Assembly: GCA_964534625.1 (NCBI GenBank)
Contig: CAZHRF010000052.1
Location: 1-17,611 of the forward strand
DNA: 17,611 bases
Origin: an uncultured archaeon
GTDB taxonomy: Archaea; Asgardarchaeota; Heimdallarchaeia; Heimdallarchaeales; Heimdallarchaeaceae
Direction: 5' to 3'
The notes beneath the pieces are model-generated. The model had not been told where the DNA came from and searched no databases. It saw nothing but the letters and a program-made list of their open reading frames with translations. Position numbers and translations under genes: made by a program. This document shows, in pieces, positions 1,022 through 16,094 of the stretch (within the stretch, counting starts at the first letter, position 1; every line of letters begins with the position of its first letter).

Positions 1022-2782
1022 ATGGGAGTAGTATCTGAAGAGCTGAAATGGACATGGCAATATCTCTGGAGGTATCCTCTTATGAGCTCAATTACTATTA
1101 TTTTTAGCGTTATTGAAATTGTTCTTTTTAGTATGCCATCTTTATATATTGCAAAAATAGTGGATCTTTTTCTTACTAATTCTCCAACAAGTGAAGTTTT
1201 AATCTGGTTAGGGTATATGCTTGGTACTAGTATATTACAAAGCGGAGTGTTTTATTTGGTAGCTTCTATCAATGAAATTTTGGCTCATAGAGTGACTACA
1301 GATATGACAGCTGACCTGTTTACTTCATTACAAGAACGCCCCTTATATTATCACGACCAAGTCAGAATAGGCGATGTTATGGCAAGGGCAACGGGAGACA
1401 CCAGAACCATTAATATAGGCTTAAGCCCTGCCTTTAGAATCCTGTGGCAAATTTTTGCTGCATTTATTTTTATTGCTAGTGTTTTAATACATATAAACTG
1501 GAAACTCACTATGATTTTAATCATAGCAGCCCCAATCTTTTTATTTACCGTTTATCGTTATGGAATAAGACTTGAACCTTTGAATAAGCAAGTCCAAGAT
1601 CGTTTTGGTGATTTAAGCATTTACACAGCTGAAAGTATAGCTGGAATTAGAGAACTTAAATCGTATACTTCGGAAGATCTGGTTAATGAAAAATTCAGCA
1701 ATGTATCAAAACATCATGCTTCTGCTATTAAAAAAGAAGCTTCATCAGCTGCCATATATATTCCAGGAATTATTATGGCGGTAACCTTAGCTCTAACGAC
1801 CTTATTTGGTGTCTATTTAATTCTTCAAGGCGAATTAACAATTTCAGGATTAGTAGCATTTACTGGGTTATTATCCATGCTTTTATTCATCGCCCGTAGA
1901 ATAGGGTGGGTAGCTCAATTTGCAGCAAGAACCAATGCTGCAGCGAGAAGATTACGAAATATGCTTTTTGTTGACATACAACCAATTGAAGAAGGAACAA
2001 AAATCTTTACTGGGAAAGACACCACTATAGAATTTAATGACGTATGGTTTTCCTACATGAATAATGGCGTATGGGCACTTAAAGGAGTTAATTTAACAAT
2101 TAATCACGGAGAAACAATAGCCATTGTGGGCGGACCAGGAGCAGGGAAAAGCACAATTAATAAAATGATTTTACATCTCTATGAACCTAATAAGGGAGAA
2201 GTAAGAATAGGGGGCGAAGCATTACACAATTATAATAACGATTCAGTAAGAAAGAGAATTTCTTCAATCGAGCAAGATATTTTTCTCTTTTCCGAGTCTA
2301 TTCGCAAAAACATTGCTTTTGGTAATCCATCCATAAGTGATGAAGAAATCACCAAGGCGGCTAAGATTGCAAAAGCTCATGAATTTATAATAGAAACAGA
2401 AAACGGATATGATACACAAATAGGCGAGCGAGGTGTGCGCTTATCAGGAGGTCAAAAACAACGTATAGCTATTGCTCGAGCTCTAATTATGGACCCTGCC
2501 ATTTTAATTATGGATGATGCAAGTAGTGCACTTGATGCTGAAACAGAAATGAAAATTCAAGAAGCGATTAGTGGTGTACTAAAAACACGAACATCTATTA
2601 TAACTACTCATCGCCTTTCTATTATTGCGGAAGCAGATAGAGTGTTACTCCTTGAGAAAGGGAGGGTAATAGCTGATGGACCTCATGAACGATTGATCAA
2701 AACTGAACCCGAATACAGAAAATTGTTTGAAGGGCATTACCATTTACCTCCAATGGAACCAATCCAGAAGGTGAAAAAATGA
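1022..2782 (+). CDS. ABC exporter, fused TMD-NBD half transporter (MdlA/TM287-like subunit)
   Basis: About six hydrophobic helices, then Walker A GGPGAGKST, signature LSGGQKQR, Walker B ILIMDD (catalytic Glu replaced by Asp), D-loop SALD and H-switch THR. Confidence 0.95.
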   Translation: MGVVSEELKWTWQYLWRYPLMSSITIIFSVIEIVLFSMPSLYIAKIVDLFLTNSPTSEVLIWLGYMLGTSILQSGVFYLVASINEILAHRVTTDMTADLFTSLQERPLYYHDQVRIGDVMARATGDTRTINIGLSPAFRILWQIFAAFIFIASVLIHINWKLTMILIIAAPIFLFTVYRYGIRLEPLNKQVQDRFGDLSIYTAESIAGIRELKSYTSEDLVNEKFSNVSKHHASAIKKEASSAAIYIPGIIMAVTLALTTLFGVYLILQGELTISGLVAFTGLLSMLLFIARRIGWVAQFAARTNAAARRLRNMLFVDIQPIEEGTKIFTGKDTTIEFNDVWFSYMNNGVWALKGVNLTINHGETIAIVGGPGAGKSTINKMILHLYEPNKGEVRIGGEALHNYNNDSVRKRISSIEQDIFLFSESIRKNIAFGNPSISDEEITKAAKIAKAHEFIIETENGYDTQIGERGVRLSGGQKQRIAIARALIMDPAILIMDDASSALDAETEMKIQEAISGVLKTRTSIITTHRLSIIAEADRVLLLEKGRVIADGPHERLIKTEPEYRKLFEGHYHLPPMEPIQKVKK

Positions 2783-4584
2783 ACAAAAAAGAAGAAAAGA
2801 TAGCTCTCATGGGTGAAGAAAGATTATGGAACCAATTGTGGCTATGGTTAAAACCTGATCTACCGCTGTTATTGGTTCTTGCTTTTGTAATTATTATTAA
2901 CTTATCCTTGTCAATAACAGGTCCAATTTATCTAAAACAAGCTATAGAGTTGATTGATCAAAATAAAGATAATTTTGGCTCTATTGAAAGACAAGCTCTT
3001 ATCTTTGCCGGGATATTTGCATTGGCCCTGGTTTTATCCTTTTTAACAACAATTATTCAAGATTTGCTTGTAGCAAAGGTTAATCCTAGATTCATTAATC
3101 GCTTACGACAAGATGCCTTTAGAAAGATTATCAATAACAAAATAAGTTTTTTTGACAAAGCTGAAGCTGGGCGTATAACAAGCAGAGTAATAAATGATTC
3201 TAATGAACTCCTTGATTCAGCTCGCCGATTTGCGGATGCGTTTTCTCAACTCATTGTTTTAATTGGTGTTCTTGTTGTAATGTTCATCTACAGTCCCATA
3301 ATAACTTTGGGAGCACTAAGTATCGCTCCTATTTTGTTTATTACAGTTGTTGCCATGCGTAAATGGAGAAGAAGAATAGCCAAAAAATGGCGAAGTAAAA
3401 TCTCTAGTGTAAATTCAAGATTTGCAGAAGTGATGGGGGCAATTGAAATTAGTAAAGCGTTCGGCAGGGAAGATGAAAACTATAATGAATTCCATGAATT
3501 AAACGAAGAAACCTATCAAGCAGCTAAGATTCGTGGTTTAGCTATCTTTTCTGTTTCTCCAATTCAAGATTTCTTGCGTAATTTGGGTATCATTGTCATG
3601 CTATATGTGGCAGCTCTACGTGTTGATGTTATTGGTATTTCAGTAGTCTATCTGTTTATTGTTCTGCAAAGATATTTGTATGACCCTATAACGGCTATAG
3701 CGCGGAGCTATAATAGATTTCAATCTTCGTTTGCTGCTATGGAACGTATTTTGGAGATCATGGCTGATAAAGAAACAAGTGAATTTACCAAAGGAAATAT
3801 AATCGCATCTGATCTTAAAGGTGAAATAGTTTTTGACAATCTCACGTTTGCTTATGAAAATGAAGAGTACGTTCTTAAAGATATTAATTTCAAAACTAAT
3901 CCAGGTGAAGTTACGGCCATTGTAGGTCATACAGGAGCGGGTAAAACTACTGTTGTTGCTCTTCTTAGCCGTTTTTATGATTATCAAGAAGGGAAGGGGA
4001 AAATATACATTGACGGAAAAGAAATTACAGAATATGATTTGAAAAGTTTAAGACGAAGTATTGGCTATGTAGCCCAAGATGTTTTACTATTTAGCGGTAC
4101 AATTCGGGAGAACTTACAGATAGCAAAAAAAGATGCAACAGATGAGGAACTTTGGTCAACTTTAGAACAAGTTCAAGCAAAAGAGTTCATAGAAACTTTA
4201 CCTGAAGGATTAGACACAGAGATTCAAGAAGGCGGGAAGAACCTATCAAAAGGTCAAAAACAGATGTTATCTTTAGCACGAGCCTTACTTTCTGATCCCA
4301 AAATCCTTGTATTAGACGAGTTTACTGCGTCTTTAGATATGTATACAGAGGCTAAAATCCAAGATGCTATTCAAAAACTACTTGAAAAAAGGACAAGTAT
4401 TGTAATTGCCCATAGACTAACAACTATTCTAAAGGCGGATAATATCATAGTGCTAGAAAATGGTAGGTTAATAGAAAAAGGTACGCACTCTGAATTGCTA
4501 TCTAAAGAGGGTAGCTATGCAAAAATCTACAAAAAATACTTTTCTTTCCAATTGGTAGGCTTAACGCCTATTAGTAAAACATGA
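2779..4584 (+). CDS. ABC exporter, fused TMD-NBD half transporter (MdlB/TM288-like subunit)
   Basis: TM domain plus Walker A GHTGAGKTT, variant signature LSKGQKQM, canonical Walker B LVLDE and H-switch AHR. ATGA overlap (2779-2782) with the upstream gene. Confidence 0.95.
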   Translation: MNKKEEKIALMGEERLWNQLWLWLKPDLPLLLVLAFVIIINLSLSITGPIYLKQAIELIDQNKDNFGSIERQALIFAGIFALALVLSFLTTIIQDLLVAKVNPRFINRLRQDAFRKIINNKISFFDKAEAGRITSRVINDSNELLDSARRFADAFSQLIVLIGVLVVMFIYSPIITLGALSIAPILFITVVAMRKWRRRIAKKWRSKISSVNSRFAEVMGAIEISKAFGREDENYNEFHELNEETYQAAKIRGLAIFSVSPIQDFLRNLGIIVMLYVAALRVDVIGISVVYLFIVLQRYLYDPITAIARSYNRFQSSFAAMERILEIMADKETSEFTKGNIIASDLKGEIVFDNLTFAYENEEYVLKDINFKTNPGEVTAIVGHTGAGKTTVVALLSRFYDYQEGKGKIYIDGKEITEYDLKSLRRSIGYVAQDVLLFSGTIRENLQIAKKDATDEELWSTLEQVQAKEFIETLPEGLDTEIQEGGKNLSKGQKQMLSLARALLSDPKILVLDEFTASLDMYTEAKIQDAIQKLLEKRTSIVIAHRLTTILKADNIIVLENGRLIEKGTHSELLSKEGSYAKIYKKYFSFQLVGLTPISKT

Positions 4585-5176: not shown

Positions 5177-6403
5177 TTAGATTGGTCTACTTTTGTCATA
5201 CTTTCTATACTCAAGATTCTCATCTAAATGAATACAAATCTCTCTTACTGAGTCAACACAATTATGAGTAGGAAAAATATCAACTGTGAGTGATCCGAAT
5301 CCTTTGGATATCATAATTCCCCGCTCAAACAATTTTTCGTTTTGAAAACCCACATCCAACATTGAATCGCGAAGAATTCGCCCACATATATCACATTTGT
5401 AACTAATTTCTTTTTCTAATTGAACATGTTCAAATTGCTTTAAACCTTGATTTTGAATGAATCTCACCAAAGAATCTTTTATTTTCATTTTTGCTTCATG
5501 AAGGATGTCTTCTGCTTTGAAAACATTTGAAACTTTAGTGGCTATTTCTTCAAATTGATCATTTTGGATACTTAAATCTCGTTCTTTACCAAATCCAATA
5601 ATGGTCACAAGATTATTACCTATATCTTTCATAAAAGAAATACTGTTATCAAAAACAAAGGCTGCATGATCTAAATTATATGTTGAATCAAATACCTTAC
5701 TCAAATCACTCCTTAATTTATCGTAATTTAAGCCACTTCTTTCAACTGGTTGGCTGTAAAGAATCAAACCTTGAGTTGTTGCAATAGCTAATGTTTTTAA
5801 GTTGTAATTTTGCCATATCTCTTTGATACTAATTTCTTTATCAGTATCTCTTGGATATGCATAAGAGATTACATTTTGTAAGGCATCAAAAAGCGTATCT
5901 TCAAATATTGATGTACCAAAAATTTCTACGTCATCGTGATTATGTGTTTCAAAAATGCCATCTATTGATTCTATAATTTCCTCTCTCTTTGTTATTGGAA
6001 CTGTATCCATTTTATGCACAAAAACGAATATTTTAGCATCATTACTATATTTTCTTACATAATCAATACTTAGATCAAAATAATACTTAGATCGCATTAT
6101 ATTTGAGGCATCAGATACATCAACTACAAAGATAACAGCTTTAGTATTGCTAAAGGTTCTTTCTTGTAATTCAGAAAAAACCTCATTTATATAATTAGAC
6201 TGTCCTCCAATATCATGAATATTAATTGAACTTCCTGCAACTTCAAAGAGTTTTCTGTTTACTCTCACTGTAGCAGGATTGAGTTTGGTTGATTTAGGTG
6301 CTACACCTTCAAAAGCAACTTGTTTAATAGACGTTTTACCAGATTCTGCCAATCCCAAAAATATTATTTTCGCTTGATTAATATCCCTTTTACCACCGAT
6401 CAT
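5177..6403 (-). CDS. Rag/Gtr1-like small GTPase with roadblock-like domain and C-terminal putative Zn-binding domain
   Basis: G1 GLAESGKTS, G2 PATVRV, G3 DIGGQ, G4 HKMD (His-type, as in RagA/Gtr1), G5 region TSIFEDTL. Roadblock-like LAIATTQGLILYS at ~aa 200. C-terminal CDIC...HNC. Confidence 0.85.
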   Translation of the reverse strand: MIGGKRDINQAKIIFLGLAESGKTSIKQVAFEGVAPKSTKLNPATVRVNRKLFEVAGSSINIHDIGGQSNYINEVFSELQERTFSNTKAVIFVVDVSDASNIMRSKYYFDLSIDYVRKYSNDAKIFVFVHKMDTVPITKREEIIESIDGIFETHNHDDVEIFGTSIFEDTLFDALQNVISYAYPRDTDKEISIKEIWQNYNLKTLAIATTQGLILYSQPVERSGLNYDKLRSDLSKVFDSTYNLDHAAFVFDNSISFMKDIGNNLVTIIGFGKERDLSIQNDQFEEIATKVSNVFKAEDILHEAKMKIKDSLVRFIQNQGLKQFEHVQLEKEISYKCDICGRILRDSMLDVGFQNEKLFERGIMISKGFGSLTVDIFPTHNCVDSVREICIHLDENLEYRKYDKSRPI

Positions 6404-6535: not shown

Positions 6536-9500
6536 TTACTCCTTATTTCTTATTTCCATTTCCTCTATTTGTGCAGCCAATATAAGTTGAGTGGCCTTCT
6601 GCCGTATCACACTAATTTTACTATTAATTTCAGCTAAAGACTTTTTCTCTTGTAACATCTTACTTAATTCATCTATATCTTGATGCAGATATTTTTCCTT
6701 ACCAATAAGTAAAGTGCCATGTTGTTCTTCTGTAACCACAATAAGAGAAAGATTCTCATAACCTCCCCTAGCAGCCTTATTCCTTAATTGAAGTCCGTGA
6801 ATATATCCGATCATATCTTCATTTGGTAAACGAATAGAGCCAGTTCTACGTTTTTCGTCAAATTCTTCAAAACCTAGACTACTATATGCTTGATCACATA
6901 TCTTCAATAAGAAATTATCAACACCTATAGCCATTCGACGGGCAAATTGATCCGATTCAAAAGAGTAATCACCTAAAAGTGGTGTTGGACCTTTTCTCTG
7001 ATCAAATATCGAGAGAATAACACCAGGAATTAACTGGACAATATTTTGTTTAATATCCTCTTCTGTTATTTCTTCAAGTATTTCTTCAAAAGATTTCGGA
7101 CGAGTAACTTTGTAAACTATAAAAGATATAATAATCATTAACAAAACACTTCCTGCAACGATTATTACAATTATTTCTGGAGGTATTCCTCCTTCGGATG
7201 GAACAGCTAAAACAGGTTCTTCCAATAAGAATGACACTACATCCAAAATATCGTTTCCTTTAAAATCAGCTGTTATTAGTAAATATGCTATTGTGTCGTT
7301 AATATCAAAATCTAATGTGGCTATACCTTGGGCATTAGTTTGTGTAATTCTTTCTAGCATTTCATCAAAACCCTCTGGAGTTGCAGCAACTGCTTGAGTA
7401 TATTCATTAAGATAAATATACAAGTAAAAATGAATATCAACAAAAGGAACAGGATCACCGTTATGATCTGTTAAATTTGCATAAACAACTAATTTATTAC
7501 CATATTCAACCGTAGTATTGGAAACATAAACGGAAAGAAAAACCGGTATAGGCTGGATTTCAACATTCATTGAAGCTATATTTTTTACTTCATCAAAATA
7601 GAATGATGATTCAATATATAGGTTGAGTGTGTAATTCCCTTTCTTTCTTGGGTATCCACTATATCTTATTAGTATAGTATTATTATCACCAAATTCTGTA
7701 TTTTCAATAACTGAAGTGCCATTAACAAATACCGCTGTTATCTCTTGAGAACTTATATTTTCAGTATCATATAATGAAACATTGATGAATATGTCTTCAC
7801 CATAAATTATATGATTTGAAATACTGTTTATATGTGCAATACCTTCTGTTCTATCAACTAAAACATCAATTTGAACAGTTTCTTTATGATCTTCAAATTG
7901 CCAAAACTGAATTTCAATTGGAGTTGGTTCACCATTTGTGATATTTGTAGCTGTAATGATAAATTCATATGTTATACTATCTAATTGTGTTGTATCTATA
8001 TCCAAATTGATTTCTTCATCTATTATATAGGTATATTTCAGACCGGTAATAGCTGTTCCTTCTTCTATGTCAGAAACACTAACAATAAAACTATATTCGT
8101 CACCATATTTCATAGAAATTGATGTGTTCTCAGGATAATTATCGGGAACAGAAATATAGTCAATCTTTAAATCATCAACGATGAAAAAATAAGTAACAGT
8201 ATAAGTGTTTGATGAAGTACTCTCCCCCGTATCATCTTGCAGTTTAATAGAAAGGATTTGTTCACCATCAAGTGATGGAATATCGATATAATTAGAACTA
8301 TTTAATAACTGTAGAATGCCATTATTCCATGAATATTCAAAACTCTCCAAATCATCATTAATACTGTCATTATACCAAAGAACGTAGTACCCTCTAATGT
8401 ATGAACCATTTGTAGCTGGAAAGTATTCGGATGTTTTAGTATCATAGAAATGTAATTCTAAGGTAGGAGCAGACAAATCAACAGTAAAAATATAACTGAA
8501 AATATGAGTATTTCCTACGATATCTTTTGTCGTAAATGATAGAGTTACAGGTCCCTCTTCATTGTAGAAGGCAGACAATTTTATTACTACAAAGCCATTG
8601 TCATCCAATATTGCATCTATGCTACCAGATAGATAACTCCAAGTATATTTAACTGACTCTATTGTTTCTCTTGATAAATCTTCTACTTGAAAATTCAGAT
8701 TAGTATAGTGATTTATCTTAGATTCATTAAATGGAAAAATAATAGATGTTTCAGGAGCTACACTATCGATTATTAAAGAAATATTGTATATTACTTCATT
8801 ACCCAATGTGTCATTGGCTTGAATGCTCAGTATCCCAAATCCATCCTCATAATCCAAAAAAAAACTGCTATTAAATGTTGTGTACTGAGAATTATCCCAT
8901 GAATAAGTACTATTTGCATTAGGATCATTATCAACAATATTAATATCAACTAGTGCACCATTTGGGATATAAAAATCATCATCTAGTTCAACTAAACCGT
9001 CAATAGAATTAATTGAAATTATTGGTGGAAACGTATCGATGGTAAAGTAAATGACTATTAGTCTAACATTACTAGCTTTATCAAATGCATAAAGGGTTAA
9101 ATTGTAATCTCCATCCTCTAGTCCCAAAAGATAAAAATCAAACGGTGATGAAAGAGTTTGATTTGATGAACCATCAATAGAAACGTAAACTAGTAGATCT
9201 GATTCTATAGTTAAATTGTCCGTAATTTGAAAACTGAAAATTTTTGTGTCCAAATGTCGGGAATTATTATATTCTCCACCTGGAATTATGACTGGTATTT
9301 CTTGATCTAAAGTGAATTTGAAAACAAATACATGTTCATTATTAGAAAGGTCTCCAACATAAATATAAAGATAGTGAATACAACTCGGATCTAGTGGAAG
9401 TGCATTGTTATCAGTTAAAACTAAAATGCTATTTGACATTAACGCAAAACCATCTTCAATTTCTCCATTATCCCATTGAAACTTTATTGTACCATTATAT

Positions 9501-11254
9501 CCTGTGATTGTTACATTAACATCATTCCCACCATAATAAAAGGAATCATTTTTCATCGTTGTTAACTCAACCAACAGTTCGCTTTTATCAACAAAGAACC
9601 TAAAAACAGTAATATTTTCTTGCATGAATTCATCAATAGCTTTTACAGTTAGATTATTCCATCCATCAATGTCTGGCGTATATTCAAAATAGGATGAAGT
9701 CCCTTCTTCTGCAGTCCAAGTGCGATAATTTTGATTGTCCCACTTATATTGCACAGAATATATCTCTGCTTCATCAGTAATTTCAACCTCTATAAGTTTA
9801 TTAGCTGAACATGTTGTCCCATTCAAAAGATTAACTAGCTTAATTGATGGAGCTTTCGGATCTAGGAAAAATATATAGAATTGCTCTTCATAAACAAAAG
9901 TATCATCAATATAGATAGTTAAATTACACTCTCCTTCTTCTAATGGTGCATAAATATTATGTTCTGGAACACTAAGTAAATCGAAAATAGTCCCATTATT
10001 ATTCCACTGATAAGTTACATTTGATGCTCCAGTAGAAACAGAAAAATTCAGTATTCCACCGCTTTTTATCATAGAATTATTCAATGGTTCTAGTAATACT
10101 ACGTCACTGTGAGATCCATCATAACCTATCTTATAGATATTTACTCTTCCATTATTAAACTCATCAAATGCTTTTACTTCTAGATAGTGCCAACCATCTG
10201 TCTTAGGTAAGGATGTGGTGGTTTCTGACCCCTCCCATGAGGTAAATTCATTATCATTCCATCTATATGATTGAGAGGTTGAATCTTGTATAGTGATATT
10301 TATATTCTTCTCTTCATAGTAATAAGTTTCATTTTCAGCTCCTGTGATAGAAATAGAAGGATAAGAAAGATCTTTGTATTTGATCTGCATACCAAAAACT
10401 GTACTGTAATAATCAAAATCGTAGGTATTAGTATAACCTTCGTCTGTTATCTGCCATTGATATGGACCTCTATCACTTGAATAGTTTATTTTAAGTTCAA
10501 CACTTGTAGAATCATCAGTAAGTAGAGAAACTTTTCCCATAACAGCTAGTTTCAACCTATAATTTTTAGGAATAATAACTGGATCCGATAGAATTAAAGT
10601 GAATACTTTTTTATTATTGAAAGAAAGATCATCGGGTAAAATTTCTTCAACATAAGCTATCTGAGTGGTATTTTGATCTGATGGATTGAATAATGACAAA
10701 CTAATATTGAGCGTATAAACTTGTTGATCATCTATGTCAGTATTAAAATGTGTTAAAACATGTATTTTTCCGGCTATTTCTGTATCTTCACTAAATACAG
10801 GTGTAAACATTGATGATCTTTTTCGCGTATTAGGTTCTTCAAGATAATAATAAGTATTGGTAGAACTAGGCCAACCAGTCTGCCCACCATCCATTTTATA
10901 TCTTTTATATGTTGAAGAACTTCCTTTATCATACATATCCTCGTAATTGTTAAACTCATAGACGCTTCCATCTTCATCTACATTGACAAAACTGTTATGA
11001 GCGAAAAAACCTTGTAACAAATAATCACCAGGGATAACCGTTTTTTTGATACCAGAAGAGATGAGCGTTTCTTCTTTTGTTTCATTTTTCTTGAGTTTGT
11101 CTTTGTAATTATCTTTGTAATCTATAATTTGCGTTCTATTCCTTTCCAATTTCTCTTCTAACTGATTTTCATACCTATAATCTTGATAAAAAAAATTTCC
11201 AGTAATAAGAATAATAATAATGAAACTGTTAATAATAATTTTACTGTTTTCCAT
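6536..11254 (-). CDS. Large cell-surface membrane protein: Ig-like repeats, transmembrane helix and cytoplasmic folliculin/uDENN-like longin domain
   Basis: N-terminal hydrophobic stretch (IIINSFIIIILITGNFFY), repeated beta-rich units with many N-x-S/T sequons, TM IIVIIVAGSVLLMIIISFIVY followed by basic KVTRPK, then LSIFDQRKGP and LRNKAARGGYENLSLIVV. Start set at ATG 11254 (upstream GGGGAT, avoids overlap with the upstream gene); 11290 and 11338 are alternatives. Confidence 0.85.
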   Translation of the reverse strand: MENSKIIINSFIIIILITGNFFYQDYRYENQLEEKLERNRTQIIDYKDNYKDKLKKNETKEETLISSGIKKTVIPGDYLLQGFFAHNSFVNVDEDGSVYEFNNYEDMYDKGSSSTYKRYKMDGGQTGWPSSTNTYYYLEEPNTRKRSSMFTPVFSEDTEIAGKIHVLTHFNTDIDDQQVYTLNISLSLFNPSDQNTTQIAYVEEILPDDLSFNNKKVFTLILSDPVIIPKNYRLKLAVMGKVSLLTDDSTSVELKINYSSDRGPYQWQITDEGYTNTYDFDYYSTVFGMQIKYKDLSYPSISITGAENETYYYEEKNINITIQDSTSQSYRWNDNEFTSWEGSETTTSLPKTDGWHYLEVKAFDEFNNGRVNIYKIGYDGSHSDVVLLEPLNNSMIKSGGILNFSVSTGASNVTYQWNNNGTIFDLLSVPEHNIYAPLEEGECNLTIYIDDTFVYEEQFYIFFLDPKAPSIKLVNLLNGTTCSANKLIEVEITDEAEIYSVQYKWDNQNYRTWTAEEGTSSYFEYTPDIDGWNNLTVKAIDEFMQENITVFRFFVDKSELLVELTTMKNDSFYYGGNDVNVTITGYNGTIKFQWDNGEIEDGFALMSNSILVLTDNNALPLDPSCIHYLYIYVGDLSNNEHVFVFKFTLDQEIPVIIPGGEYNNSRHLDTKIFSFQITDNLTIESDLLVYVSIDGSSNQTLSSPFDFYLLGLEDGDYNLTLYAFDKASNVRLIVIYFTIDTFPPIISINSIDGLVELDDDFYIPNGALVDINIVDNDPNANSTYSWDNSQYTTFNSSFFLDYEDGFGILSIQANDTLGNEVIYNISLIIDSVAPETSIIFPFNESKINHYTNLNFQVEDLSRETIESVKYTWSYLSGSIDAILDDNGFVVIKLSAFYNEEGPVTLSFTTKDIVGNTHIFSYIFTVDLSAPTLELHFYDTKTSEYFPATNGSYIRGYYVLWYNDSINDDLESFEYSWNNGILQLLNSSNYIDIPSLDGEQILSIKLQDDTGESTSSNTYTVTYFFIVDDLKIDYISVPDNYPENTSISMKYGDEYSFIVSVSDIEEGTAITGLKYTYIIDEEINLDIDTTQLDSITYEFIITATNITNGEPTPIEIQFWQFEDHKETVQIDVLVDRTEGIAHINSISNHIIYGEDIFINVSLYDTENISSQEITAVFVNGTSVIENTEFGDNNTILIRYSGYPRKKGNYTLNLYIESSFYFDEVKNIASMNVEIQPIPVFLSVYVSNTTVEYGNKLVVYANLTDHNGDPVPFVDIHFYLYIYLNEYTQAVAATPEGFDEMLERITQTNAQGIATLDFDINDTIAYLLITADFKGNDILDVVSFLLEEPVLAVPSEGGIPPEIIVIIVAGSVLLMIIISFIVYKVTRPKSFEEILEEITEEDIKQNIVQLIPGVILSIFDQRKGPTPLLGDYSFESDQFARRMAIGVDNFLLKICDQAYSSLGFEEFDEKRRTGSIRLPNEDMIGYIHGLQLRNKAARGGYENLSLIVVTEEQHGTLLIGKEKYLHQDIDELSKMLQEKKSLAEINSKISVIRQKATQLILAAQIEEMEIRNKE
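8170..10365 (-). repeat. About eight degenerate protein-level tandem Ig-like repeats (~85-100 aa each)
   Basis: Recurring pattern D-x-x-(A/P)-P-x-I...Y-x-W-(D/N)...(D/E)-G-x-x-x-L-x-(V/I)-x-A-x-D-x-x-(G/N)-N...F-x-(V/I)-D. Examples: DGWHYLEVKAFDEFNN, DGWNNLTVKAIDEF, DGDYNLTLYAFDKASN, DGFGILSIQANDTLGN, EGPVTLSFTTKDIVGN, DGEQILSIKLQD. Boundaries are approximate. Confidence 0.75.
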
Positions 11255-11279
11255 CTTGATCCCCAATAACCATACTATC

Positions 11280-12044
11280 TTATTTTTCATTTTCTGCCAT
11301 ATATTTGTGTAATTTAAACGATTTGAGAAAAATATCATTTATAGCTTCTTTTAATTCTTGAACTCCGTTTCCCGTTATATTTGATATTTCAACGGTTTTT
11401 ATATCTTCTAAATCAAATCTAAATCCAATCTTATCTTCGATATGATCTTGAACGAAATATCTTGCTTTTTGTATTTGACTAAATTCGACTTCAATAGCTT
11501 CTTCTCGCTCTAGATGAGTGCCTAGAATAATTATACCCGTATATTCTTGTATTAATTCTCGTTCAATAGCTCGATCTAACCAATATTCTAACTCTTGAAA
11601 TGTTTTCATATCTGTTGTATTATAAGTAAGAACAAGTGCCAAAATCGCATCCATTTTCGATACATCAAAAAATAAATCACAAGCATCTTCAAAAGCTAGC
11701 CCCTCGCCTTTCCCACCTTTCCCTTTTTGACCTGGCATGACAAAAATCTGCGAACTAATAACGATTTGATATTTCTCAATATTAGAATGAAAAACAAAAT
11801 AATTAAATTCGATATTAATAGATTTTTTTAATGAAAGGATAGTTTGCCTTGAAAATTTTACTCCTTGAATATGAGTCAGATTAAGTGCTGTATGGGTTTT
11901 ACCAGTTTGCCCATCACCAATAAAAACTACTCCCCCTGTACAAACCACATTTCTTTCTCTAAAAAGCACTAAATGTGAAATTGGCGCTTCAATATTCATT
12001 TTAATGATAGATGATTTGCCATTACCTTCGGGATTATTTTTCAT
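11280..12044 (-). CDS. Atypical Ras-superfamily small GTPase
   Basis: G1 GDGQTGKT, G3-equivalent VMPGQ (no Asp), TFQELEYWL helix, G4-equivalent GTHLE, G5 EISNITGNGVQEL. Confidence 0.8.
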   Translation of the reverse strand: MKNNPEGNGKSSIIKMNIEAPISHLVLFRERNVVCTGGVVFIGDGQTGKTHTALNLTHIQGVKFSRQTILSLKKSINIEFNYFVFHSNIEKYQIVISSQIFVMPGQKGKGGKGEGLAFEDACDLFFDVSKMDAILALVLTYNTTDMKTFQELEYWLDRAIERELIQEYTGIIILGTHLEREEAIEVEFSQIQKARYFVQDHIEDKIGFRFDLEDIKTVEISNITGNGVQELKEAINDIFLKSFKLHKYMAENEK

Positions 12045-12086: not shown

Positions 12087-12284
12087 TTGGGAGAAAGAGA
12101 AATACTGAATATTCATCTATTAAAACCCAACAGCCATAAATAGATTTTAAGTATAATTTAGGCCATAACCACTTTCTTCTAGAGTAACGTGATCTTTAAC
12201 TGTGCTTTATACAGACGTTTTTTCACCAGTTTTACTTCCTATGAAAGAAAATAATAAATTTATACAATAAACCATTGCAGTTAT

Positions 12285-12340
12285 GTGAATACCTTTATAT
12301 TTGGACGAGAATTTATAGAAAATACAAAATAAGTGGTGAT
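12285..12340 (+). promoter_or_regulatory. Possible TATA box and Shine-Dalgarno site of the second Rag-like GTPase
   Basis: GTGAATACCTTTATATT at 12285-12301 and GGTGAT at 12335-12340 before ATG 12344. Confidence 0.45.
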
Positions 12341-12343
12341 GTC

Positions 12344-13834
12344 ATGTCTTATTTATATGACGAAATATATGAAAGAGATGGAAATGATAAATCATCAGAA
12401 GGTAAGAATAAAATAATAATCATGGGTTTACAAGCAGCTGGAAAAACAGCCATAAAGGAGCTTATATTTTTAGGTAAATCTCAAGAAGAAGTCGAAAATT
12501 ACATGGCCACCACACATTATACCAGACATTTTTTAGATGAAAGTAAACAAAATGTGATAATAGATTCTGGCGGTCAAGAATCTTATTTTAATGAAGCTGT
12601 AACCTATTACCGTAATCTAATCTTTTCTGATGCTAAATTATTAGTATGGGTTGTTGATATATCAAGTCCAGATTTATTTGAAGAATCAGAGAGACGATTT
12701 AGTTTTACCATTCGTCAGTTTAAGAAAAAGAATCCAGATGGGATAATATATGTATTTTGTCATAAAAGTGACCTTGTTGAAACAGAAAAAATCGCTTCTA
12801 TTGTCCAATATTTGAAAGGTTCATTACATGATCCCAAATTTGAGATTAACTTTAGAATAACATCCATTTATGATAAATTAGAATTAAATGAAACATGTAA
12901 AGAAATGTTAGTAGCTGCCAACATTCGTACAGATAACTTAGAATTAGTAACCAATGTTGAAGGAGATGAGGAAGTTTCACAGGATCAAATAAGTTTCATT
13001 GCAGAAACAGATTCTAATCAAAAAATCCAATTATTGAGTAAATTCATGGCAAAAAAACCCAGATCTCAACTTCCTACCTTTGGTAAACTTGAAGTTGATG
13101 TAGATTTAGAGGGGCGAGATATAATTGAGATTGTATTACTTGACAAAGAAAACTTTTCACCATCTCTTGGAGCTTCATCGCATAGACTAGCGGATAAAGG
13201 TAATTCAATGGATTATCTTTTAGCACTTAACTATTTCAAAAAAACTCTAAAAGAAAAGGGCAAAGATATTCCGGTGTACGAAAGCATTATAGATTCTTAT
13301 AACTCTCAAATTTGGGCATGTATCTACAATATAAAACATTACTATTTACTCATAACTTCTTTCTCTGAAATAACACAAACAAGAGGTAAAGAATTCGAAG
13401 ATTTAATCAAAGGCTTTGCAGAGATTATTAAAAAAAAGGAACAGAAAGTTTCTAAGGAAGATTTTGAGGTTAAAGAAGTAGCTAAACCAATTACAGAACC
13501 AACCAGAGAGATAAGCCAAGGACAAGATGTGAACCAATTTTTAACTCAAGAAAATATACAAGAAACACAATCAAAAGAAGAGAATATAAATGGGGAACAA
13601 TTAAAAGAAATAGAAAGAAACGCAGATGTAGAGGTTCTAAAAGCAAAATATAGAAAGTTATTAGAAGAAAGTAAAAAAAGAGAAGAGCAACAACGAACTC
13701 AATTAAAAGACGAAATACAAAGTGATAAAAAACAAGAAAAAGATTCTTTGATTACTTTCTCTTCAACTGAAATGAAACATTTGGTAAATTTCTTCATAAA
13801 AAATAAAAAGAGAGCAGAAGATGAAGAAAAATAG
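12344..13834 (+). CDS. Second Rag/Gtr-like GTPase with putative roadblock/longin-like domain and charged C-terminal tail
   Basis: G1 GLQAAGKTA, G2 YMATTHY, G3 DSGGQ, G4 HKSD, G5 region TSIYD. Start at ATG 12344, preceded by SD-like GGTGAT (12335-12340), rather than TTG 12275. Confidence 0.82.
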   Translation: MSYLYDEIYERDGNDKSSEGKNKIIIMGLQAAGKTAIKELIFLGKSQEEVENYMATTHYTRHFLDESKQNVIIDSGGQESYFNEAVTYYRNLIFSDAKLLVWVVDISSPDLFEESERRFSFTIRQFKKKNPDGIIYVFCHKSDLVETEKIASIVQYLKGSLHDPKFEINFRITSIYDKLELNETCKEMLVAANIRTDNLELVTNVEGDEEVSQDQISFIAETDSNQKIQLLSKFMAKKPRSQLPTFGKLEVDVDLEGRDIIEIVLLDKENFSPSLGASSHRLADKGNSMDYLLALNYFKKTLKEKGKDIPVYESIIDSYNSQIWACIYNIKHYYLLITSFSEITQTRGKEFEDLIKGFAEIIKKKEQKVSKEDFEVKEVAKPITEPTREISQGQDVNQFLTQENIQETQSKEENINGEQLKEIERNADVEVLKAKYRKLLEESKKREEQQRTQLKDEIQSDKKQEKDSLITFSSTEMKHLVNFFIKNKKRAEDEEK

Positions 13835-14220: not shown

Positions 14221-14763
14221 ATGAACAAAACCTCTAAAAATTGTATGCCAAAAGAGAAAATTGCTAAAATAATTATAGCGGGGGATGGGGCAGTAGGTAA
14301 GACTTCTATTGTCAATAGCATAATTGACAGCGATATCGAATGTAAAGATGTTAAAATGACACCTGGCATCAATATTGAAACAGCAAGATATGAACTCAAG
14401 AAAGATAAAGAAGTGGTTAACTTAACTTTTTGGGATCTAGGAGGACAAAAACAGTTTCGTTTTTTTCAGGAAGATTTTACAAAACAAACAGATATCGTAC
14501 TTTTGGTATATGACCTGTCACGGTATAAATCCTTTATAAATATTGAAAAAGAATGGGCACAAATGTTCAATTCTGGTAATAATATGCTCACGAAAAGAAT
14601 TTTAGTTGGGAACAAAGATGATCTCAAGAATAGTATAAAAGATCAAGAAATAGAAGAAATGGCTGAAAAGTTAAATGTACCGCATATTAAAGTGTCAGCT
14701 CTCGAGAACAGAAACATAGAGAAACTTTTGGAACTAATAGGATCTTATTTAGAATGTGAATAA
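14221..14763 (+). CDS. Rab/Roc-like single-domain small GTPase
   Basis: G1 GDGAVGKTS, G2 MTPGINI, G3 WDLGGQKQFR, G4 GNKDD, G5 VSA. The start could be 14245. Confidence 0.92.
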   Translation: MNKTSKNCMPKEKIAKIIIAGDGAVGKTSIVNSIIDSDIECKDVKMTPGINIETARYELKKDKEVVNLTFWDLGGQKQFRFFQEDFTKQTDIVLLVYDLSRYKSFINIEKEWAQMFNSGNNMLTKRILVGNKDDLKNSIKDQEIEEMAEKLNVPHIKVSALENRNIEKLLELIGSYLECE

Positions 14764-14918: not shown

Positions 14919-14945
14919 TGTGTTATATAATTTTTCTTGAGTTTA

Positions 14946-15407
14946 ATGAACCAGACTAAAAGTGAATATGATTTATTAATAAGCTGTCCAGTATGCAATG
15001 AGGGCGTTATGATATCTGTTGAAGATGTGAGTAGTATACGCGATGCCAAACGATATCCAGTATCGTTAACCAATGTACATGGAGATCCAAAACATGCTAT
15101 CACTTTATTTATTGATCAAGACATGAGAGTTAGAGCTGTTGAACCCTCCGACATAATTTTCGAATTAGAAGAATTAAAAGCAAATAGAACGCTAAGAGAA
15201 CGGTATATTCCTTATCCTATTGAAGGACATGTTGACTTAGGGGGGCTATCACGAGAAGAAGTGGTTATCATTTCGCTTTCTGATGGCAATCGTGATATCA
15301 CAGAGATTTGTAAAGTTCTAACTCTGAGCAAACTGAAAGGTAAGATGTTTGCTGAAAAATTAGTTCGTGACAAGAAATTAGCTAAAGTAGAGAAAAAAAT
15401 AATCTAA
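14946..15407 (+). CDS. Putative zinc-finger (CxxC...H...H) plus winged-HTH protein
   Basis: CPVC...HGDPKH...FIDQDMRVRAVE at the N-terminus. C-terminal LSREEVVIISLSDGNRDITEICKVLTLS...KLVRDKKL matches a 'DGxR' wHTH pattern. ATG 14946 lies ~28 nt after a TATA-like box. Confidence 0.65.
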   Translation: MNQTKSEYDLLISCPVCNEGVMISVEDVSSIRDAKRYPVSLTNVHGDPKHAITLFIDQDMRVRAVEPSDIIFELEELKANRTLRERYIPYPIEGHVDLGGLSREEVVIISLSDGNRDITEICKVLTLSKLKGKMFAEKLVRDKKLAKVEKKII

Positions 15408-15428
15408 AAATTGCAAATGGTGAAATAA

Positions 15429-16094
15429 ATGAATAATAATGAAGAGCCAAAAATGAAAAAAATCAATATATTTAGGCGATTTAAAAATAAGATTATTGTA
15501 ACAGGGGCCAAAGCCAAAAAGAAATGGGCAACCGAAAAAGTTGCTTCTTTCACAGTTACAAAAATGAATGAAACGCTCGTTAAAGAACTCATTCAAGCTG
15601 TTGGAGAAAAAGAAGCAATGGAAAAGATTTTTCGTGCAGCAGCTAATTTGGGGCATGAATACATGTTAGAATTATCTTCATTACTTGAAGGACATATAGA
15701 CACTATGCCTGCTTATGCTCAAGCAGCATGGTTAATGTTTTCGGGACACAAACTAGAGGCAACAAATTATCAAGAGATCCAAATTGGGGAGTATACTTGT
15801 CCAGCATTAAAATTTGTAGATCCATCTTGTCCTTGGTGCAAAAATATTTCTTTTGAGTCGCCATTCTGTACATATCCCGCGGGGGCATATAATGGTGCAG
15901 GACAAACATGGGCAGAATTAACTGATGAACCATATAATTTCTTTGTGAGAGAGCTGAAATGTAAAGCACAGGGAGCCAAACATTGTGAGTTCCTCTTTCT
16001 TGCATGCCCTAAAGACATGTCAATTGATGTGTTAAAACAAGAAAAACCCGAATGGTTTGAGTACATAGACTATGGATTTTTCTCATTTGACTAA
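15429..16094 (+). CDS. V4R (4-vinyl reductase) domain protein
   Basis: CPWC, FCTYPAGAYNG and VRELKCKAQGAKHCEF match the V4R ExxCxAxGxxxCxF signature. The start may be a later ATG. Confidence 0.85.
   Translation: MNNNEEPKMKKINIFRRFKNKIIVTGAKAKKKWATEKVASFTVTKMNETLVKELIQAVGEKEAMEKIFRAAANLGHEYMLELSSLLEGHIDTMPAYAQAAWLMFSGHKLEATNYQEIQIGEYTCPALKFVDPSCPWCKNISFESPFCTYPAGAYNGAGQTWAELTDEPYNFFVRELKCKAQGAKHCEFLFLACPKDMSIDVLKQEKPEWFEYIDYGFFSFD

Follow-up and report, generated by a model that had tools for sequence, protein, structure and literature searches.

Does a cell-surface protein of an archaeon end in a GTPase-activating protein (GAP) of the folliculin (FLCN) type, and are the GTPases encoded beside it its partners? 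The question is raised by a complete 17.6-kb contig (C52) from a Heimdallarchaeaceae genome of 3.37 Mb, which is ~90% complete and has a GC content of ~0.30. This contig, all 17,611 nucleotides of which we call the window, carries a gene for a large membrane protein, here termed the receptor, among four GTPase genes. A sequence-only reading of the window had taken the C-terminal tail of this protein for a folliculin/SMCR8-like longin domain that retains the arginine finger of an active GAP. We find that membership of the tail in the FLCN/NPRL2/SMCR8 class of GAP longins is supported by its fold, by a GP motif and by an invariant arginine that aligns with FLCN R164. Beyond this, we infer direct GTPase binding, GAP catalysis by the arginine, a target GTPase and control by the ectodomain.

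A longin domain behind a transmembrane helix

The receptor gene lies on the minus strand at 6536..11338 and, counted from the first ATG of its listed and translated open reading frame, encodes a single-pass membrane protein of 1600 residues; an alternative start codon at 11254 would place the start 26 nt past the upstream gene rather than within it. By sequence inspection, an N-terminal hydrophobic signal or anchor segment (residues 34-51; 11186..11239, minus strand, as for all receptor features) precedes a β-rich ectodomain of ~1340 residues with immunoglobulin (Ig)-like repeats (7175..11185), and 40 N-x-S/T sequons are spread over residues 61-1385. The repeats are recognized through weak Big_13 and Big_7 matches in the window protein; in the homologues the Pfam matches are clear, with Big_13 in 26 of 47 and Big_3_3 and PKD also recurrent. 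A transmembrane helix follows (residues 1389-1409; 7112..7174), at a position kept in the homologues and with Lys and Arg residues behind it, as in the positive-inside pattern. The last 184 residues (1417-1600; window 6539-7090) make up the tail, in which acidic juxtamembrane helices (domain residues 1-20; 7031..7090) lead into the cytoplasmic longin domain (domain residues 21-184; 6539..7030). Most likely, the receptor is a single-pass surface protein with the Ig-repeat ectodomain facing outward and its last ~165 residues forming a longin at the inner face of the membrane.

The tail was modeled with AlphaFold2 (AF2) from an alignment of 47 homologues, with a predicted local distance difference test (pLDDT) score of 96.4 and a predicted template modeling score of 0.91. 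In the model the tail is a longin, with β-β-α-β-β-β-α-α topology: two short N-terminal helices (2-7 and 10-20) are followed by strands β1 (23-30) and β2 (34-42), helix-α1 (57-72), strands β3 (83-88), β4 (93-103) and β5 (111-121), and helices-α2 (122-147) and -α3 (152-183). The juxtamembrane helices belong to the same confidently modeled unit (mean pLDDT 97-98 over domain residues 1-20, in 10-residue blocks). The protein terminates three residues past the third longin helix, with no SNARE motif after the domain.

Two motifs stand out in the tail. The F-x4-GP motif FDQRKGP (F29 to G34-P35 in domain numbering; residues 1445-1451; 6986..7006) lies at the β1-β2 hairpin, where G34-P35 opens strand-β2, and the loop between strands β4 and β5 reads A-A-R-G-G-Y-E-N (6752..6775) and contains the candidate arginine finger, R108 (R1524 of the receptor; codon 6767-6769). 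The sequence-only reading had placed both the FDQRKGP hairpin and the Arg of AARGG exactly. Longins have the strand order 2-1-5-4-3, from which the β1-β2 and β4-β5 loops of the tail would be neighbors on the same edge of the sheet.

A Foldseek search of the PDB with the tail model gives as its top ranks a Lokiarchaeal longin dimer (8yqg), GATOR1, FLCN, the SEA complex, Lst4 and C9orf72-SMCR8. By VIA-align, Z is 13.6 for 8yqg, 12.0 for the Lst4 longin, 11.7-12.0 for the FLCN chains of 8dhb, 6nzd and 6ulg, 11.6-11.8 for C9orf72-SMCR8 entries, 9.8 for GATOR1 chains and 7.8-9.3 for the longins of Ykt6, Sec22, TRAPP and DENND1. As judged from the model, the nearest solved structures after one Asgard longin are thus the longins of GAP complexes, and the proposed FLCN/SMCR8-type longin domain is borne out by prediction. 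A roadblock/LC7 (MglB-type) reading of the tail was rejected, as the α-β-β-α-β-β-β topology of that type lacks the two C-terminal longin helices, which are long in the model, and roadblock proteins reach a Z of only 6.7-7.6.

An exhaustive HMMER search of 1.84 billion cluster representatives (50% identity clusters) found 52 relatives of the tail, in two groups at 45-58% and 21-31% identity. The match is nearly always C-terminal in the protein found, and full-length proteins have ~1300-1600 residues; in the databases, homologues are labeled hypothetical except one ‘LamG-like’ entry. Within the phylum, 150 of 400 genomes contain the tail. Close relatives of the receptor gene are all in metagenome-assembled genomes of Heimdallarchaeota, and full-length receptor homologues in Heimdall genomes have ~1450-1640 residues. 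Down to 21% identity, the 47 aligned homologues share F29, Q31, G34, P37, F74, R108, G109, G110, E112, N113 and R163 without exception, and P35 is near-invariant, being replaced by Ala in a few. Conservation in the family is therefore highest in the F-x4-GP hairpin and the Arg loop, which is far from a chance likeness of one sequence.

The source genome contains only one copy of the tail. Elsewhere, some Heimdall genomes carry the receptor gene in two to three tandem full-length copies (loci L003, at L003:44-10522, L010, L016 and L026), and since every tandem copy retains the GP and Arg motifs, hetero-oligomers are possible. Open frames of ~8,800-10,400 codons terminate in the tail in a sister family, f5, with up to eight matches per genome (tail matches at G070:C10:124912-125298, G075:C193:39709-40155 and G057:C87:16443-16847). 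Three tail matches contain an in-frame stop, TAA in G018:C97:109373-109912 and G020:C282:6288-6821 and TGA in G082:C74:42614-42934, and may be decaying paralogues or assembly errors.

Correspondence with folliculin

The sequence-only reading had aligned the tail by eye with a fragment of FLCN; that fragment is identical, letter for letter, to residues 128-203 of human folliculin (PDB 6ULG), with R164 in the sequence SLARGF. We compared the family profile with FLCN by hhalign after removing the FLCN insert (residues 29-99, ~70 residues), with which the local match was split. The resulting alignment spans 147 columns and pairs F29 with F10, G34-P35 with G15-P16, and A107-R108-G109 with A163-R164-G165, in keeping with the proposed equivalence of the archaeal Arg with R164. 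Its score is 20.1, as compared with 12.6 ± 2.4 for a null of shuffled columns, in which 2 of 200 shuffles reach 20.1, and with 11.4 for a reversed control; for FLCN, the profile has little depth, being built from near-identical vertebrate sequences only. The alignment agrees element by element with the order of the secondary structures and with the earlier alignment by eye. In global mode, hhalign returned a meaningless alignment between the tail family and FLCN. A language-model atlas lists clusters containing NPR2 and LST7 among the neighbors of the tail, which we regard as a lead only.

The paired residues are those through which FLCN meets its GTPase. Loop 10-16 of FLCN contacts RagC and sets specificity, and the F10D mutation abolishes GAP activity; R164 adjoins BeF3 in the RagC pocket, and its loss likewise abolishes GAP function (PMC9473554). 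The invariant archaeal residues therefore map onto exactly the two elements of FLCN that touch the GTPase. The GP motif and the Arg are reported to be specific to GAP longins and to be present in Heimdall longins, and in SMCR8 the arginine finger is R147 (PMC12290439).

Rag-like GTPases beside the receptor gene

Directly downstream of the receptor gene lies Rag-like GTPase 1 (408 residues; 5177..6403, minus strand), which matches Pfam Gtr1_RagA with an E-value of 9.6e-35 and, among PDB sequences, Gtr1 (5e-24) and RagA (4e-20). Directly upstream is an atypical small GTPase (254 residues; 11280..12044, minus strand), recognized by its P-loop GDGxTGKTH and by MPGQ and THxD/E motifs. Rag-like GTPase 2 (519 residues; 12275..13834, plus strand) is divergent from this gene and matches Gtr1_RagA with an E-value of 3.4e-23 and Gtr1, RagA and RagC in the PDB. 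For both Rag-like proteins the top PDB sequence matches are yeast Gtr1 and human RagA, followed by RagC/D. The fourth GTPase is a small Ras/Rab-like protein (180 residues; 14221..14763, plus strand; Pfam Ras, E 4.2e-30). The G3 motifs of the four read DIGGQ, DSGGQ, DLGGQ and MPGQ, so that all keep the Gln after the G3 glycine, as had been claimed for switch II.

The order of these genes was followed through 37 related Heimdall loci, which come from kin genomes and are not independent samples. The order there is the atypical GTPase, the receptor gene in one to three tandem copies, Rag-like 2 and a convergent Rag-like 1, and it is kept across two Heimdall families. A Rag-like 2 orthologue stands directly 3′ of the receptor gene or array in 29 of the 35 loci with downstream DNA, and for at least 17 loci the immediate upstream neighbor of the receptor gene is the atypical GTPase. 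As the proteins share only ~50-57% identity in the tail and ~30-36% in the ectodomain, the arrangement of receptor and GTPase genes is old. For the Ras-like GTPase, none of the 37 loci gave a match near a receptor gene with the thresholds applied. In the window, by contrast with L002, L004, L009, L015 and others, it is Rag-like 1 that comes after the receptor gene, in the same orientation, and Rag-like 2 is placed upstream of the atypical GTPase and divergent from it, as if the GTPase pair had been rearranged locally.

Two further arrangements bring the longin together with Rag-like GTPases. In genome G397, a homologue of 2321 residues is flanked on both sides by Gtr1_RagA GTPase genes. In family f20, the two are fused: a 472-residue protein (L042:9747-11165; L048:8774-10192) has a homologous longin at its N terminus, a Gtr1_RagA GTPase at residues 167-390 and a further C-terminal region. 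The fusion longin is 24-29% identical to the tail, with FD-x-x-GP-x-P and A-R-G in register. Conservation of the Arg among homologues, on which the sequence-only reading depended, thus extends from the 47 aligned homologues to the f20 fusions. The fusion is therefore independent evidence that this type of longin works with Rag-like GTPases, and gene order, the flanking genes in G397 and the f20 fusion together make a strong sequence-level case for an association of the receptor longin with Rag-family GTPases. In L042, a 213-residue protein without a Pfam match is encoded 120 nt downstream of the fusion gene.

The atypical GTPase differs from the other three. Its G3 motif, MPGQ, lacks the Asp, a feature that we take to be MglA-like. 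In its family, THxD replaces NKxD, ISN replaces SAK, and a strictly conserved G-L-A-F-E-D-A block follows a Gly/Lys-rich insert behind MPGQ. By hhalign, the match of the family to the Ras-like neighbor extends through the entire G domain (probability 78.7%, E 1.7e-5), and that to Rag-like 1 is confined to the P-loop; no PDB sequence match was found. An AF2 model built from 18 orthologues has a pLDDT of 52.9, with the N-terminal half below 50, and was not used.

The remaining genes of the window include an ABC exporter pair (ABC_membrane and ABC_tran; 1022-4584), which adjoins the receptor cluster here and in three related loci (L022:8972-12384, L023:1168-4694 and L033:7-2669). The contig begins inside a gene on the minus strand (3-635) with weak, sub-threshold reprolysin/zincin metallopeptidase matches (E 3e-4). 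At 14937-16094, 3′ of the Ras-like GTPase, are encoded a 156-residue CxxC protein without a Pfam match and a 221-residue protein with a weak match to V4R, a domain related to TRAPPC3/Bet3 (PMC10933270).

What the tail may do

We assign a probability of about 0.5 to the reading in which the receptor tail is a membrane-anchored, probably dimeric, folliculin-type longin that binds a co-encoded Rag-like GTPase, with R1524 as the arginine finger and the F-x4-GP hairpin for docking. From its position on the inner membrane face, the longin would bind the Rag-like GTPase, probably as a dimer; the hairpin would provide docking in the way FLCN docks on RagC, and the invariant R1524 of the β4-β5 loop would be inserted beside the γ-phosphate. 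GTP would in consequence be hydrolyzed faster at the cell membrane. More tentative, and in our judgment somewhat doubtful, is the extension in which a folliculin-type GAP with an arginine finger, acting on the co-encoded Rag-like pair, is under the direct control of the extracellular Ig-repeat domain, in what would be a pre-eukaryotic cell-surface FLCN-Rag nutrient-sensing switch that later moved to the lysosome.

Several observations weigh against a folliculin-type GAP. With an hhalign probability of 2.5-3.8% and an empirical p of ~0.01, the profile alignment between the family and FLCN is weak, and neither phmmer with the tail nor the family HMM (hidden Markov model) finds FLCN among PDB sequences; the chance matches of these searches were a methyltransferase and an antibody complementarity-determining region with ARGGxENL. 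The window protein, whether whole or as the tail, has no Pfam Folliculin or longin match at E <= 10. Pfam Folliculin (PF11704) is the sole recurrent family match outside Ig-like and extracellular-type families, in 6 of 47 homologues, but all of these matches fall below the 23.3-bit gathering threshold, the best among the 47 having 20.3 bits (E 5.2e-4) and a further fragment 20.8 bits (3.6e-4). Because it lies below the curated threshold, the receptor is not filed as a Folliculin member and is taken only as a distant relative, or member of the class. The folliculin-like identity proposed earlier thus stands for the fold, the GP motif and the Arg alignment, and fails in that the window protein has neither a Pfam Folliculin match nor a DENN domain; on the grounds of the missing C-terminal DENN domain and the Pfam threshold, we rejected a reading of the receptor as an FLCN orthologue.

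The make-up of the known enzymes and of the family points the same way. In eukaryotes, longin GAPs form heterodimers with a partner that lacks the Arg (FNIP/Lst4, NPRL3 or C9orf72) and have DENN domains, except for Lst7, which like the receptor tail is a longin without one. No Arg-less longin partner was identified: the genome has the single tail copy and paralogues elsewhere all retain the Arg, other longin families not having been searched. FLCN has no counterpart of E112, N113 and R163, which are invariant in the family, and R108 could be structural instead of catalytic. Around the f5 sister family, in six loci sampled, no GTPase neighbor was detectable with the window GTPases as queries. 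Finally, most longin and roadblock platforms act as guanine-nucleotide exchange factors (GEFs) or scaffolds and not as GAPs.

These points leave room for a tail that catalyzes nothing and holds the Rag-like GTPases at the membrane as an anchor or platform, like Ragulator or the FNIP and NPRL3 longins, with the Arg and GP loops used for binding or dimerization; such a longin might signal what state the ectodomain is in. An anchor fits the genomic coupling to Rag-like GTPases equally well, the top structural match is a dimeric Lokiarchaeal longin with no activity assigned, E112, N113 and R163 are not catalytic features of FLCN, and dimers of the roadblock and longin type serve generically as platforms for GTPases (PMC10933270). 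However, FNIP2 and NPRL3, along with further non-GAP longins, carry no GP motif (PMC12290439), whereas in the tail family both GP and Arg are invariant and align with the FLCN elements at the RagC pocket; we therefore hold a non-catalytic anchor to be unlikely, with an appreciable chance of being right. The same pair of motifs, reported as specific to GAP longins, also speaks against the tail being a GEF or exchange platform for the neighboring GTPases, which is the role of most longin and DENN platforms (TRAPP, Mon1-Ccz1 and DENND1). Longin proteins are more typically GEFs (PMC12290439; PMC10933270), and the fold of the tail also matches the DENND1 and TRAPP longins at Z 8-9, yet it is ~3 Z units closer to the GAP-longin group, and the receptor has no DENN or TRAPP partner domains. 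An exchange function thus appears quite improbable.

If the tail is a GAP, its target need not be a Rag-like protein. The gene of the atypical GTPase abuts or overlaps that of the receptor, conserved in at least 17 loci, and its Asp-less MPGQ motif resembles that of MglA, whose GAP is a dimer of the roadblock superfamily, MglB. The tail could accordingly be a GAP or an MglB-like co-GAP for this upstream GTPase. It is with Gtr1_RagA-type GTPases, though, that the f20 fusions and the G397 locus pair this type of longin; the atypical family aligns with Ras/Rab-like and not with Rag-like proteins, and its AF2 model is too poor for use. We rate the atypical GTPase a very improbable sole target. That the tail has nothing to do with GTPases, and is, for instance, a module for regulation or sorting of the SNARE kind or a cytoplasmic cap with a purely structural role, seems to us barely credible: longins do occur in SNAREs and adaptor subunits, which the tail matches at Z 8-9, but no SNARE motif is present in a protein that ends after the third helix, the order with Rag-like genes is conserved despite ~50% identity in the tail and ~30% in the ectodomain, and an independent fusion joins the longin to a Rag-like GTPase.

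The folliculin-type reading can be set beside the systems that the tail resembles. FLCN (in FLCN-FNIP2, and as Lst7-Lst4 in yeast; GAP for RagC/D and Gtr2; PDB 8DHB, 6NZD, 6ULG and 4ZY8) matches the model with a root-mean-square deviation of 2.8-3.7 over 136-144 residues at Z 11.7-12.0, has its F-x4-GP hairpin and A-R-G loop at equivalent positions, and, as far as gene context predicts, shares with the tail a place at a membrane surface next to Rag-family GTPases. Unlike FLCN, the tail is anchored by a transmembrane helix to an extracellular Ig-repeat domain of ~1350 residues, lacks the insert between strand-β2 and helix-α1, and carries E-N after the Arg as well as R163, which are specific to its family; its GAP role is a prediction. 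MglB offers a looser parallel as a roadblock/longin-superfamily platform that regulates a small GTPase encoded nearby, and one neighbor in the window has an Asp-less, MglA-like G3 motif. MglB differs in its roadblock topology and supplies no arginine finger; it appears only in the Foldseek list (3t1r, E 1.8e-2).

Much of the groundwork within Asgard archaea has been published. The FLCN/SMCR8-type longins (Traffic 2025, PMC12290439) and NPRL2-like longins (bioRxiv 10.1101/2020.10.19.343400) of this phylum belong to the same class as the tail and have both motifs at corresponding positions of the structure; the earlier of these studies (bioRxiv 10.1101/2020.10.19.343400) reported NPRL2-like longins and FLCN-like proteins, and possible GAP activity toward Rag/Gtr or ArfR GTPases has been proposed (PMC12290439; bioRxiv 10.1101/2020.10.19.343400). 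The central claim, a GAP-type Asgard longin with GP and Arg, is thus already in print as a prediction (PMC12290439). So is the longin-Rag fusion architecture (PMC10933270; bioRxiv 10.1101/2020.10.19.343400): the Lokiarchaeal fusions, met here as L042:9747-11165, share with the receptor a homologous longin (24-29% identity), F-D-x-x-G-P-x-P and A-R-G motifs and a Gtr1_RagA-type GTPase, but are soluble and have the longin in cis with the GTPase, whereas the receptor longin is separate and membrane-anchored, with the GTPases encoded alongside. In the literature searched we found neither a receptor-like fusion of a longin with an Ig ectodomain and a transmembrane helix nor a cluster of atypical GTPase, receptor and two Rag-like GTPases, and the main text of PMC12290439 contains no ‘transmembrane’, ‘operon’ or ‘fused’ and a single, unrelated match to ‘neighbo’. 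The fusion to an Ig ectodomain and transmembrane helix and the conserved gene cluster are apparently the new parts.

As a domain, then, the tail is unsurprising, and its value lies in the defined set of regulator and GTPases to which it belongs. PMC12290439 raises the question of GAP activity in Asgard GAP-type longins and of their target GTPases, and assigning pairs is difficult in the cultured Lokiarchaeon MK-D1, where a small GTPase gene seldom shares an operon with a candidate regulator (PMC10933270). The present locus is a defined test set: a single 184-residue longin tail and, next to it, three GTPases, of which two are of the Rag family. Should the Arg-dependent GAP activity prove false, the invariant pair of GP and Arg would need another explanation, one that would bear on the function of the eukaryotic complexes too. 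Should it prove true, the tail, at present a candidate archaeal forerunner of the folliculin Rag switch, would imply that the FLCN/GATOR-Rag logic predates eukaryotes and appeared first as the output of a membrane receptor.

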